A stretch of DNA of 61,274 bases from a virus (lineage: Duplodnaviria; Caudoviricetes), in the IMG/VR virus record IMGVR_UViG_3300025769_000007, positions 1 through 61,274 of that record; one strand, given 5' to 3'. How positions within the stretch are numbered: the first letter of the stretch is position 1; each line of letters starts with the position of its first letter. Made by a program: the position numbers and the translations under genes. This document shows positions 8,951 to 60,836 of the stretch, piece after piece. The notes under the pieces were generated by a model. The model did not search any database and had not been told where the DNA came from. It saw only the letters and a program-made list of their open reading frames with translations.

Positions 8951-9216
8951 TGAAAGAAGAAAATCAATTAAACTTACTGCTATTACTAGCTACGTTTAAA
9001 AGCTTTAGTGAGCAGTTGTACAACCTAAAGGGTGAGCATTCAGGGCTGGTTAAAAAGAAGTTTAACATGCTAATGAACGCTGTAAGTAGTTACGAGAGAA
9101 CCATAGACGAAGAGTGGTTAAAAGAAAATAAGTCTGTTATTGAGGACTTAAACGACTCAGTTACTGATTTTATTTATATACTAAGAGACGAATCCATTAA
9201 ACGAAATACTAACTAA
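8950..9216 (+). CDS. Hypothetical protein
   Basis: 88-aa coupled ORF. Confidence 0.7.
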   Translation: MKEENQLNLLLLLATFKSFSEQLYNLKGEHSGLVKKKFNMLMNAVSSYERTIDEEWLKENKSVIEDLNDSVTDFIYILRDESIKRNTN

Positions 9217-10041: not shown

Positions 10042-10462
10042 AAGTAAAGAGGATAGAGAAAGAGAGGCTGAAACTCTTCGCATCCTCCTCGAGGGAAAAG
10101 ATTTAACCTTTAAGCAGTTAGATAAGTACGCACCAGTAGATGCTGAGATTATAGATAATAAGACCATGAAGGTTGTATCTTTATGCGAAATTAAAACAAT
10201 GTCTTTAAATATGACTGACGTACAGAGAGCTAGAACTTCAGTAAGAAAGATACAGCATTGCCAGAAAGAAGCCCTTCAAAAAGAGTTACCTTTATGTATA
10301 GCTTGGAGATTTCTCGATGGAATTGGTTATATTTGGATGCACGAAATAACAAAAGCCACAGTTGAGTGGGGTGGCATGAGAAACCCACGACCAGGATCTA
10401 TATGGGATAGAGAATTGTTATTCTATATAGACCTAGATTTACTAACTATAATTAAATTTTAG
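10010..10462 (+). CDS. PD-(D/E)XK-fold nuclease-like protein
   Basis: YAPVDAEI...LCEIKT motif; start probably at 10010 or 10019 rather than 9941. Confidence 0.6.
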   Translation: MEKMRLEPRFESKEDREREAETLRILLEGKDLTFKQLDKYAPVDAEIIDNKTMKVVSLCEIKTMSLNMTDVQRARTSVRKIQHCQKEALQKELPLCIAWRFLDGIGYIWMHEITKATVEWGGMRNPRPGSIWDRELLFYIDLDLLTIIKF

Positions 10463-11444: not shown

Positions 11445-11662
11445 CTCTCCATTTTTTTTACTTATTTATAAGTTTTTTGGATTTAATTTACAGGAGAGTT
11501 TAGTACGAGAGCAAGCTGCGTGAGTGCTGCATAGTATACGAGAGTGGGCTGCGTGAGTGCTACATATCTAAATCCTGGCTTTAAGCAATATGGGCTAGGT
11601 TGTTCTTGTATTCGGGGGGTTTTTGAGATTTGGTCGTCCATGCGGCCCCCCAATACTTTTTT
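11445..11662 (+). ncRNA. Candidate structured small RNA with tandem repeat hairpins
   Basis: Non-coding, locally GC-rich; two copies of TACGAGAG-NNN-GCTGCGTGAGTGCT-R-CATA, further hairpins and a U-tract. Confidence 0.5.
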
Positions 11663-58120: not shown

Positions 58121-58522
58121 ATGGCAACAGTAACACCTAAATTAACATTAACTAGTGCAGACCTATTATCTCAAAACTTGAATTTATCTGTATCTACTTC
58201 AATTACAGCATCTCACACAACAGGGATTGCTCGTGCACCTATCACTTCAACCGCTAAAGGAACAGCATCTGGACAGGTTACTCTATACACTGGAGATGAC
58301 TACGCAGCAATAGCTTACTTGTACGTTAAAAATACAAACTCTACAGCAGCAAATAAAATATACATATACGATGACACCTCAACTGGTGACCCTATATGGA
58401 TGCAGCTACAAGGTGGAGAGTTTGCTTTTGTCCCTATGCATGGTGATAAAACTTTAAAGGCTTACTCACCAGGAGGTAGTAACCCAATCGTAGAGTGGAT
58501 GGTATTTGGTACTGATCAATAA
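58121..58522 (+). CDS. Probable virion structural protein
   Basis: YLYVKN...LQGGEFAFVP beta-sandwich-like pattern. Confidence 0.6.
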   Translation: MATVTPKLTLTSADLLSQNLNLSVSTSITASHTTGIARAPITSTAKGTASGQVTLYTGDDYAAIAYLYVKNTNSTAANKIYIYDDTSTGDPIWMQLQGGEFAFVPMHGDKTLKAYSPGGSNPIVEWMVFGTDQ

Positions 58523-58524
58523 GA

Positions 58525-58893
58525 TCAAGACCTCTTCCTTTGCTCACTCTTAATCTTCTTACACCCCTCACATCGACAACCGTTTCTATACGCTGTCGTT
58601 GAGGGGCAAGACCTTGATTTACCTGCCCTGGCAGCCCTGTAGTTACAACTCTTGTGAGAGAAAGCTATGTTGTCAATATCAAAAAACAAACCCCTAGGAT
58701 CTTCTGAGTGAAGCCAAGGGGTTTTATGTTCTACAGTGAAGTCATCACACGACTCTATTTCAGCACCACACTGATAACACCAGTGCATATCTAATCTCTT
58801 CGCAAACTCAAACAATAAGTTCTTCTTTAACCTGTTTGAAGCAGTGCCAGGATCCATACCCAACTGCTTAGTCTTCTCTTGCTTAATTCCCAA
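58525..58893 (-). CDS. HNH endonuclease
   Basis: CYQC...EHKTPW...NIAFSHKSCN and C-terminal YRNGCRCEGC. Confidence 0.8.
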   Translation of the reverse strand: MGIKQEKTKQLGMDPGTASNRLKKNLLFEFAKRLDMHWCYQCGAEIESCDDFTVEHKTPWLHSEDPRGLFFDIDNIAFSHKSCNYRAARAGKSRSCPSTTAYRNGCRCEGCKKIKSEQRKRS

Positions 58894-58895
58894 AA

Positions 58896-59081
58896 TTAAA
58901 AGATTGGTTCGTCCAAGTCCGTAACACTTAACTCTATCAACTCACCCGACATAGACTGAATTACTACAACGTAATGAGAGTCGCCAACGTAAAATCCAGA
59001 AGCCATAATGTGAGATTCACCATCTTTTGACACAGCAGCACCGCATACATTTTCAAACATAGATTTTTGATTTTTTTGCAA
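58896..59081 (-). CDS. Hypothetical protein
   Basis: 61-aa ORF co-oriented with the HNH gene; start may be 59060. Confidence 0.5.
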   Translation of the reverse strand: MQKNQKSMFENVCGAAVSKDGESHIMASGFYVGDSHYVVVIQSMSGELIELSVTDLDEPIF

Positions 59082-59481
59082 TATATAATTTTTTCTGAGA
59101 AATAAAAAGGGTGGGGGTTATATATGTAATCTGTGAGTGTGTTCCATACACCGAAACCCGAATCCCGAAACGGGGTACCCAAACTAAAATACAATGCATG
59201 CATTCTAAATGTCGTTTTCTATTTTCAGTCTGTTAGGCTAACTATCATCAGCTATGCTATCTGTCAGTACTAAGAATCCTAAACATTGTCTTATATGCTC
59301 CCTAAGATACCCCAAACGGAACGTATCGCAGTAACTATTACAAGGAAAGGAGCTGAAAGAGGTGGTGTAATATCCCCAATAAACAACCCAACCCCCAAGA
59401 TATACAAACAACACAAAAAAAAGTTTACCCTCTCAATCCCTTGCTATCAGTACGTTTGCAATATTTGTTGTAACATTTAAT

Positions 59482-59523
59482 GTAAAATAATTTGACACGT
59501 ATTGTTTTTTATTCGTACATTTG
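59482..59523 (+). promoter_or_regulatory. Major early promoter (-33 TTTG / -7 TACATTTG)
   Basis: TTTG at 59491-59494, TACATTTG at 59516-59523, GTAAAATAATTTGAC overlapping the -33 box. Confidence 0.75.
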
Positions 59524-59550
59524 TCCCAACAATGATTCAATATCGTTGTC

Positions 59551-59561
59551 GTTCTTTAACA
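59551..59561 (+). promoter_or_regulatory. boxA-like antitermination element
   Basis: GTTCTTTAACA fits boxA consensus GYTCTTTAANA and follows a hairpin ACAATGAT/ATCGTTGT. Confidence 0.6.
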
Positions 59562-60080
59562 TACTGATTCAGATATAGCACACGTGATGGTTGTGGCAAC
59601 GTCCCTAGGGATTAGCAGTAAGACCACGTTAACCTAGTGTAGCATCTGACTATCAAGTCTCTTTCGAGGGTGTTGAGATAGCATATCAGTAATAGACCTT
59701 TAGCTTGATTGAGGGTCGTAAGTCTTAGTCACGATACGTGGCAGTAGCATTGCCTACCTAAACGTATTAGAGCAATAATTCAATCAGCGTTTGTCAGTAT
59801 CGAATCAACTGAACGGAAACCACTGCCGACAACCAAGTGGGCTTGGATAGACCAATAGGCTATCATCAAGTTAGGTAAAGCACCATAGGGGATGTAAGAA
59901 ATCCGTACCGATTAATATGGGAAGTCTATCAGAGGGGATACTGATGATAGGTGGTAAGCAATTGAAGTGCCACCTTGATAGGTATGAAACTAAGTGGCAG
60001 TTAGTTTGAAGCAAGATAGACACCACGCCTTTGTGTGTTAAGGCGTGACTAATAACAACACACAAACTCCTTTTGATTTG

Positions 60081-60105
60081 GTGGGGGAAGTTTCCCCCAT
60101 CTTTT
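60081..60105 (+). terminator. Intrinsic terminator whose U-tract overlaps the twister P1 stem
   Basis: GTGGGGGAA-GT-TTCCCCCAT followed by CTTTT. Confidence 0.7.
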
Positions 60106-60153
60106 AAAGCTACCTAAGGCAGTTACAAGTCTGCATAAAAGCTGAGTAGAGGA
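60100..60153 (+). ncRNA. Twister self-cleaving ribozyme (type P1)
   Basis: TCTTT TAA AGC TACC TAAG GCAG TTACAAGT CTGC ATAAAA GCT GAGTA GAGGA: P1, P2, P4, conserved UAA and both pseudoknots present. Confidence 0.85.
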
Positions 60154-60194
60154 AACAAATCAATAAACTAATCATTAATCTTAAATTATTTACT

Positions 60195-60530
60195 ATGGAA
60201 AGTGTAAGAGAATTACTAAATGAACTGAATACATATTCAGTAAAGGATGCAAACGCAATCAATAAAAAGGTACTATTTAAAAATGGTATTGAAGTAACGT
60301 ATCATGTCAAGAATAATTTGCAAAATGAAGATATGGTATTCCAAGCAGTACTTGTTATATCTTACAAGAATAGTGAGCCTATCGTATGGGGATGCACCAC
60401 AAATGAGGATAACTACCAAGTGGTTAGATGGTTTGAGAGGAAAGATGCTGGTATGCTTCAAAAGAAGAACAAGCAGAGAGAGACAGACACTCGAATATTA
60501 GCATCACTAATTGATGTATCGAAGTTATAA
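60195..60530 (+). CDS. First early hypothetical protein
   Basis: 111-aa ORF with ACTATG start, downstream of the ribozyme. Confidence 0.75.
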   Translation: MESVRELLNELNTYSVKDANAINKKVLFKNGIEVTYHVKNNLQNEDMVFQAVLVISYKNSEPIVWGCTTNEDNYQVVRWFERKDAGMLQKKNKQRETDTRILASLIDVSKL

Positions 60531-60535
60531 AAAAT

Positions 60536-60556
60536 GGGGGGAAAAATCCCCCCTTA
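60536..60556 (+). terminator. Hairpin / weak terminator
   Basis: GGGGGGA-AAAA-TCCCCCC-TT. Confidence 0.5.
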
Positions 60557-60575
60557 ACCTTAACAATTAGAAACT

Positions 60576-60836
60576 ATGAAATCAAACGAGAAATTAGCAC
60601 AAAAAATGTACAATGAAATATGGGACATATATAATACCTATGGTGGGTATGACTATAACGATAGTATGTTATGTCAAGCACAAGGCTCATCAGATGCCTT
60701 TGATTATTGGATATATGAAAAGGATGAAGACTGGGGTAACTTGGTTAAAGAATTGACACCATGCTTGGAGTATATGCGACACATCAAGAAGATACGAATA
60801 CTACAAGAGAGTATCCCACAACCTTTATATTGCTAA
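60576..60836 (+). CDS. Early hypothetical protein
   Basis: 86-aa ORF with TAACCTTAAcAATTAGAAACTATG leader. Confidence 0.7.
   Translation: MKSNEKLAQKMYNEIWDIYNTYGGYDYNDSMLCQAQGSSDAFDYWIYEKDEDWGNLVKELTPCLEYMRHIKKIRILQESIPQPLYC

Follow-up and report, generated by a model that had tools for sequence, protein, structure and literature searches.

The segment 60100–60153 on the plus strand of the phage genome analysed here was confirmed, at the level of sequence and predicted structure, as a type-P1 twister ribozyme without the optional P3 stem. The ribozyme class is a known one; new is its context after a large structured RNA. The ribozyme always stands at the 3′ edge of this conserved RNA, with the early genes directly after it, and this layout indicates a role that can be put to the test. 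We give a probability of roughly 0.7 to the reading that this is an active minimal P3-less twister that would cut the large RNA free from the early messenger. This reading draws on the membership of the element in the class by sequence and structure, on covariation and on the conserved linkage with the large RNA.

The window, that is the whole stretch of DNA that was analysed, is the entire IMG/VR virus record IMGVR_UViG_3300025769_000007 (61,274 nucleotides). Its terminal 127 bases are identical at both ends, and this overlap indicates a circular map of about 61.1 kb. The record encodes a portal protein, a large terminase and a DnaB-like helicase. The terminase is nearest to those of phages of Flavobacterium, Cellulophaga, Maribacter and Tenacibaculum (identity at most 48%) and the RNA libraries that contain near relatives of the region carry marine labels, which suggests that the host is probably a member of the marine Flavobacteriia. 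The tail-fibre-like genes on the plus strand stop at 58522, and none of the open reading frames in 58894–60194 is longer than 79 amino acids. The features of the region are the following:

58525–58893, minus strand: HNH endonuclease gene (phrog_23251, E 7.5e-34), with tail-fibre genes on one side and the noncoding region on the other
59491–59523, plus strand: promoter-like site (−33 TTTG, −7 TAnnTTTG), an exact pattern match upstream of the large RNA
59527–60080, plus strand: body of the large structured noncoding RNA, with the start placed from the promoter; the end would be the cut at 60105
59550–59567, plus strand: boxA-like leader element, occurring once in the window and almost unchanged across nine aligned relatives
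60081–60100, plus strand: GC-rich hairpin at the end of the large RNA, from the minimum-energy fold; terminator-like with the U run that follows
60100–60153, plus strand: type-P1 twister ribozyme (RF03160) without P3, from the Rfam match, the R1 model and covariation
60195–60530, plus strand: first downstream open reading frame (111 amino acids, no family), starting 42 nt past the ribozyme

Position 60195 opens a plus-strand block of small open reading frames that runs over the ends of the record. A protein search with the product of the first one found a single relative, 83% identical, in locus L002. Within the phage collection, blastn matched the HNH gene to two Klebsiella phages and to no others.

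Twister elements and class membership

In type-P1 twisters the helices P1, P2 and P4 are nested, P1 holds both ends of the RNA, and two pseudoknots (T1 and T2) connect the loop of P4 to the two internal loops. The P3 stem is optional within the twister class, and a P3-less type-P1 form is already known. Cleavage by twisters leaves a 2′,3′-cyclic phosphate and a 5′-hydroxyl. The class was reportedly described by Roth et al. in 2014. In the window, its elements were assigned as follows:

60100–60104 with 60149–60153, plus strand: P1, from the twister alignment
60105–60107, plus strand: UAA, the cleavage-site bases in the Rfam model alignment
U60105/A60106, plus strand: predicted self-cleavage site, from the position of the UAA in the Rfam model alignment
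60108–60111 with 60140–60143, plus strand: P2, four pairs
60112–60113 with 60129–60130, plus strand: pseudoknot T2
60119–60121 with 60132–60134, plus strand: P4, with a possible extra pair G60122–C60131
60124–60126 with 60146–60148, plus strand: pseudoknot T1

An earlier note on this DNA, made from its letters, had mapped the twister fold element by element, and every element that it named was found at its position. Only P2, for which helix and place were right, had been given as three pairs and comprises four. The cut predicted in that note agrees with where the UAA falls when the site is aligned to the Rfam model, and both this alignment and the minimum-energy fold place the 5′ strand of P1, as it had said, in the U-rich run 60100–60105 after the hairpin. 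Its description of the pseudoknot changes as compensatory also held, since these depart from the consensus on both sides with pairing kept, and since T1 and T2 covary in viral sequences.

The twister-P1 model search named in the same note as a check gave a full-length match, covering 60101–60152 and model positions 1–68 of 68, but its 43.6 bits lie below the gathering score of 67.2 bits. The E value was 5.5e-8 when 1.4 kb were searched with 4227 families and 5.8e-10 when the whole 61-kb record was searched with this one family. At gathering thresholds, no Rfam family was matched anywhere in the window. In the alignment to the model only the P3 stem is deleted, and the remaining departures from the consensus are confined to the two pseudoknots, where three of the five pairs differ from it on both sides and yet pair. 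Apart from P3 and the pseudoknots, each base shown in upper case in the consensus is matched. As the covariance model leaves pseudoknots unscored, the compensatory changes are support that is independent of the score. The window element therefore shares with RF03160 the helices P1, P2 and P4, the two pseudoknots, the loop bases and the cleavage-site UAA, whereas it differs in the missing P3, the three off-consensus pairs and the sub-threshold score. Furthermore, all 16 invariant columns of alignment A2 are present in the window, most of which had been fixed by the search pattern. The minimum-energy fold contains the nested ribozyme helices together with the upstream hairpin. The folding energy of 60100–60153 as a single sequence is unremarkable (z −0.57), so that it is the models and the covariation, and not this energy, that support the assignment.

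In total, ten loci were run against Rfam. Eight other P3-less viral twisters scored 40.2–60.8 bits, all below 67.2, including one that has the consensus pseudoknot, and two P3-bearing viral twisters stayed below the threshold as well (52.5 bits, and 53.6 bits for L003). The twister of L036 was not reported by Rfam at E 0.01. As other P3-less viral twisters are equally sub-threshold, the low Rfam score is no warning. The gathering threshold appears to be set for P3-bearing forms and is a curation cut-off that describes no structural feature. By every structural test made on its sequence, the window element is a twister, and it falls short of the curated score threshold only.

To collect comparable elements, two patterns were used. 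With the pseudoknot bases of the window fixed, 25 viral contigs were found, which form groups differing in P1, P2 and P4 and some of which bear a P3 stem. A looser pattern, in which the helices and T1 were free and the P3-less length was fixed, found at least 117 viral stretches. The results also show that many twisters without P3 in viral contigs go unnoticed at the Rfam threshold. Over all loci gathered there were at least 126 matches, 102 of them distinct. P2 and P4 are perfect in 117 of the 126 listed matches, and in all those 117 T1 and T2 are perfect too. T1 occurs in eight pair combinations, the window's own being present in 15 of these 117 listed matches, and the T2 type of the window in 22 of them.

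Pairs were counted over all 102 distinct listed sequences, including three nearly without P2/P4 pairing and six with one P2/P4 mismatch. In this set, 92.0% of the cells are paired compared to 65.5% in shuffles (none of 500 shuffles reached the observed value), whereas slid controls pair at 22–44% only. Changes on both sides were found in 15 of 17 pairs, among them every pair of P1, P2 and P4. The share of paired cells is 77.8% in P1, 97.3% in P2, 96.4% in P4, 99.0% in T1 and 99.5% in T2. We also built a covariance model (R1) on 87 of the minimal twisters of viruses; the window, the RNA-linked relatives and the three matches nearly devoid of P2/P4 pairing were excluded from it. R1 aligned to 60100–60153 gap-free with 60.2 bits (rough E 2.7e-15), and the runner-up in the window had 12.5 bits. 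Since the collecting pattern was drawn from conserved bases of the window, neither R1 nor the covariation set is wholly independent of the window.

Some of the contigs gathered showed further arrangements. The P3-bearing twisters with the pseudoknot bases of the window (L003, L004, L011, L012, L016, L017, L020, L021 and L024) occupy one conserved site in viral contigs of 53–152 kb. Two minimal twisters per contig are present in L051, L106, L125 and L132. In L050, a Pistol ribozyme is located about 420 nt 5′ of the twister (1133–1199 and 1615–1666), and L009 has a hammerhead-like match 55 nt from its twister and a RAGATH-16 RNA about 1.3 kb off (9005–9183, 10352–10423).

The large RNA and its linkage with the ribozyme

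The large RNA is about 570 nt long and the open reading frames in it all have at most 64 amino acids. An alifold prediction from nine aligned sequences gave 156 pairs, 44 of which have changes on both sides, and an 11-pair long-range helix closes the 3′ domain immediately before the terminal hairpin. The approximately 500 bases after the leader are 72–93% conserved in relatives. No Rfam family was found for this RNA, neither in the window at gathering thresholds nor in 59000–60400 at E up to 10, where besides the twister only chance-level matches to mir-1923 and the DUF2693 RNA (E 2.8) were seen, the latter overlapping the boxA-like leader. The analysis brings to light a large phage RNA without an Rfam family.

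The promoter-like site at 59491–59523 presumably follows the consensus of Bacteroidota-type promoters. Its pattern has three exact matches in the window, each just 5′ of a gene start, at 3.4 expected by chance. This number is not above chance, which counts against co-transcription of the large RNA with what follows, an assumption that builds on the pattern. Relatives show a similar −7-like box upstream of the large RNA, and no exact match is present between 59523 and the open reading frame at 60195. The element at 59550–59567 resembles boxA, an element of Nus-type antitermination leaders that is situated near the 5′ end of the transcript and bound by NusB and NusE, and is preceded by a small covarying hairpin.

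To avoid seeding on the ribozyme, we searched for relatives with a 49-base pattern that was taken from the large RNA's core. The scans found nine viral and 15 metagenome loci, some contigs being present in both collections, and all are of marine type as far as the record labels tell. Counting the window and one contig with two locus ids, there are 26 core loci, of which L139 (278 bases) is too short to assess. In all 25 assessable loci, representing 15 distinct contexts, a twister is located 219–288 nt downstream of the core on the same strand. Two versions of the ribozyme occur among the RNA-linked loci, with paired changes in one P2, two P4 and one T1 pair, and in L147 a C replaces the otherwise invariant U. 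The layout of the unit that had been proposed for the window is indeed kept in the relatives: a promoter and the boxA-like leader come first, then the large RNA with its hairpin, and the ribozyme and the early open reading frames follow.

When 58400–60600 was compared by blastn to 50,697 phage records, two short matches were found, both under the HNH gene, whereas the RNA and the ribozyme had none. In three phages with a related terminase (37–48% identity), twister-P1 had no match at E up to 1, which suggests that the device is dispensable in the wider group. A cultured carrier was thus found neither among the phage records searched by blastn nor among these three phages.

Relatives of the large RNA are also present in contigs of marine RNA libraries. 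This evidence consists of assembled contigs from four marine runs, and the word shares of the runs matched to the region were all at most 0.17. Contig record 6 of run X1 corresponds to 59991–60146 and crosses the cut site, indicating that uncleaved RNA, or DNA, with the site exists in that library. Among the other contigs, one stops at 60101 and one continues into a variant ribozyme. No pile-up of contig ends was seen at 60105 in the four runs; assembled contigs are unable to show RNA ends.

Hairpin, U run and the 3′ end of the large RNA

At 60081–60105 a GC-rich hairpin stands directly before a U-rich tract, as in an intrinsic terminator, and an RNA released by the ribozyme would look terminated as well. 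The 50 nt before the cut fold with −16.7 kcal/mol. A scanner that calls a tail terminator-like when at least five of the eight bases after the stem are T did so for 60083–60097 with its T-rich tail, 60100–60105 having five T in six bases. The idea that terminator and ribozyme are interlocked, put forward in the earlier note, is borne out in part: relatives keep the hairpin and a few U after it, but the U tract is terminator-like in only five of the 14 tabulated RNA-linked contexts (the window and four others; L147, the 15th context, is outside this scoring). One of these five (L036/L144) has a weak predicted stem. The other nine contexts have at most four T after the stem, mostly three or four U, and several relatives carry an elaborated terminal stem of 60–70 nt, followed by three U, in place of the simple hairpin.

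These data bear on the possibility that hairpin and U run form a working intrinsic terminator that makes most of the 3′ ends, while the ribozyme is a fail-safe trimming read-through transcripts to nearly the same end. The scanner result and the five contexts with at least five T agree with such a terminator, the U run doubles as the 5′ strand of P1, and a boxA-like leader would suit partial read-through; however, the nine contexts with at most four T and the long stems followed by only three U do not fit, and we consider this explanation unlikely. The U residues carry no argument for termination by themselves, as P1 and the U of the cleavage site constrain them as well. Since the ribozyme is present in 25 of 25 loci whereas the U tract is patchy, the conserved maker of the 3′ end appears to be the ribozyme beside the terminal hairpin. 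Compared with an intrinsic terminator, the end in the window would arise by self-cleavage after passage of the polymerase and carry a cyclic phosphate, and the U tract is short or absent in most members of the family.

The minimal viral twisters (loci L028–L138) allowed the same question to be asked more broadly. The 50 bases before the cut reach −10 kcal/mol or lower in 68 of 100 listed contexts but in only 19 of 100 upstream controls, the control being the mean energy of windows further upstream (paired Wilcoxon p 6e-13 for pre-cut stability against these windows). In 65 of the 68 hairpin-bearing listed contexts, the stem ends 0–7 bases before the cut. Among 89 listed contexts with enough flank, 57 have a hairpin before the cut, and a terminator-like T run follows in only two of these 57, which again speaks against a working terminator. 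Within 150 nt, an open reading frame on the same strand starts downstream in 62 of the 89 (median 35 nt) and one ends upstream in 61 of the 89. These counts suggest that a stable hairpin, a twister and the next gene, in this order, are a common layout in the listed contexts. Judged by its sequence, the window is a variant of this layout with the large RNA as the upstream gene.

The proximity of the next gene, together with the fact that type P1 leaves almost the whole ribozyme on the 3′ product, would also suit a function directed mainly at the downstream messenger. The ribozyme would then strip off a long leader, the 5′-hydroxyl and the compact fold would protect or tune the early mRNA, and the large RNA would be a cis-acting leader, for instance in antitermination. 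A comparable processing of polycistronic transcripts into parts differing in stability or translation has been suggested for bacterial twisters, according to a review (PMC6765202). However, the 44 covarying pairs and the closing long-range helix exceed the needs of a disposable leader, and the terminal hairpin would protect the large RNA after the cut, so that we regard this explanation as improbable, slightly more so than a working terminator. Neither explanation is exclusive, as both are compatible with a release of the large RNA. It is very improbable that the element resembles a twister by chance or is a copy that has decayed and lost its activity: the score below the gathering threshold, the ordinary single-sequence fold and the altered invariant base of L147 would fit it, but all five helices show paired changes, the window has every base that is invariant across the 102 listed sequences, and the ribozyme is kept in all assessable large-RNA relatives.

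Proposed release of the large RNA and comparison with known systems

Under the preferred reading, release of the large RNA by the twister, we infer a common transcript, its cleavage in the cell and the following fates of the two products. Transcription would start at the host-type promoter 59491–59523 and yield a transcript containing, in this order, the boxA-like leader, the RNA of about 570 nt with its GC-rich end hairpin, the ribozyme and the small early open reading frames. The polymerase would run on past the large RNA, the ribozyme would fold once its 3′ half exists, and the folded ribozyme would cut between U60105 and A60106. This would set the large RNA free with its hairpin, a tail of four to five bases and a 2′,3′-cyclic phosphate, the hairpin protecting the released RNA, whereas the downstream messenger would begin with a 5′-hydroxyl and a nearly complete folded ribozyme. 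In this genome, hairpin and U run may halt some polymerases at about the same base, and termination at the cut position is possibly an extra in some genomes.

A wider reading, which we put forward tentatively and hold to be somewhat doubtful, is that the module of hairpin and twister is a general phage device for producing terminator-like RNA 3′ ends without a polymerase stop. Here it would free a new class of structured RNA of about 570 nt, which phages of marine Flavobacteriia would make at the onset of infection from a transcript that is led by a boxA and resists termination. If true, a twister ribozyme would thereby have a biological function that is defined.

According to PMC10879173, theta ribozymes, which are minimal HDV-like ribozymes, are located directly downstream of phage tRNA genes and cut at the tRNA 3′ end, a layout like that in the window. 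They are proposed there to mature phage tRNA without host nucleases, and the phages concerned infect Bacteroidota, among others (PMC10879173). The systems differ in the ribozyme class, in the RNA released (a tRNA versus an RNA of about 570 nt) and in the origin of the samples (gut versus marine; PMC10879173). Among the published texts covered, the theta ribozyme at phage tRNA 3′ ends is the nearest functional analogue in print. The 2019 review describes the role of most genomic small ribozymes, bacterial and phage twisters included, as undefined (PMC6765202). The bacterial and phage-associated twister and hammerhead ribozymes treated there are placed in intergenic spacers of phage operons, as is the one in the window. 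In contrast to those ribozymes, whose purpose is undefined (PMC6765202), that of the window has a conserved structured RNA upstream, which gives it a concrete and testable role. In a literature search made mainly outside the subscription journals, no paper was found on a twister coupled with a terminator or with a large RNA of phages.

Some further observations were made in the window and its relatives. A second conserved noncoding stretch, 59103–59227, is located between the HNH gene and the promoter, about 300–500 nt 5′ of the large RNA, and has 72–82% identity in six relatives (L008, L010, L013, L014, L018 and L019). Near the end of a plus-strand gene block, 11504–11566 contains two 30-base direct repeats that are 87% alike and separated by 33 bases. 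A G6/C6 hairpin is located at 60536–60553 between the first and second early open reading frames; it resembles the hairpin before the ribozyme in style, has no U run on the plus-strand side and is listed by the scanner as a minus-strand terminator only. The 11-base motif TAGAAACTATG, with the start codon at its end, stands exactly before three successive early open reading frames (60568, 60854 and 61033, plus strand), and with at most one mismatch it occurs nine times, compared to 3.2 expected occurrences.
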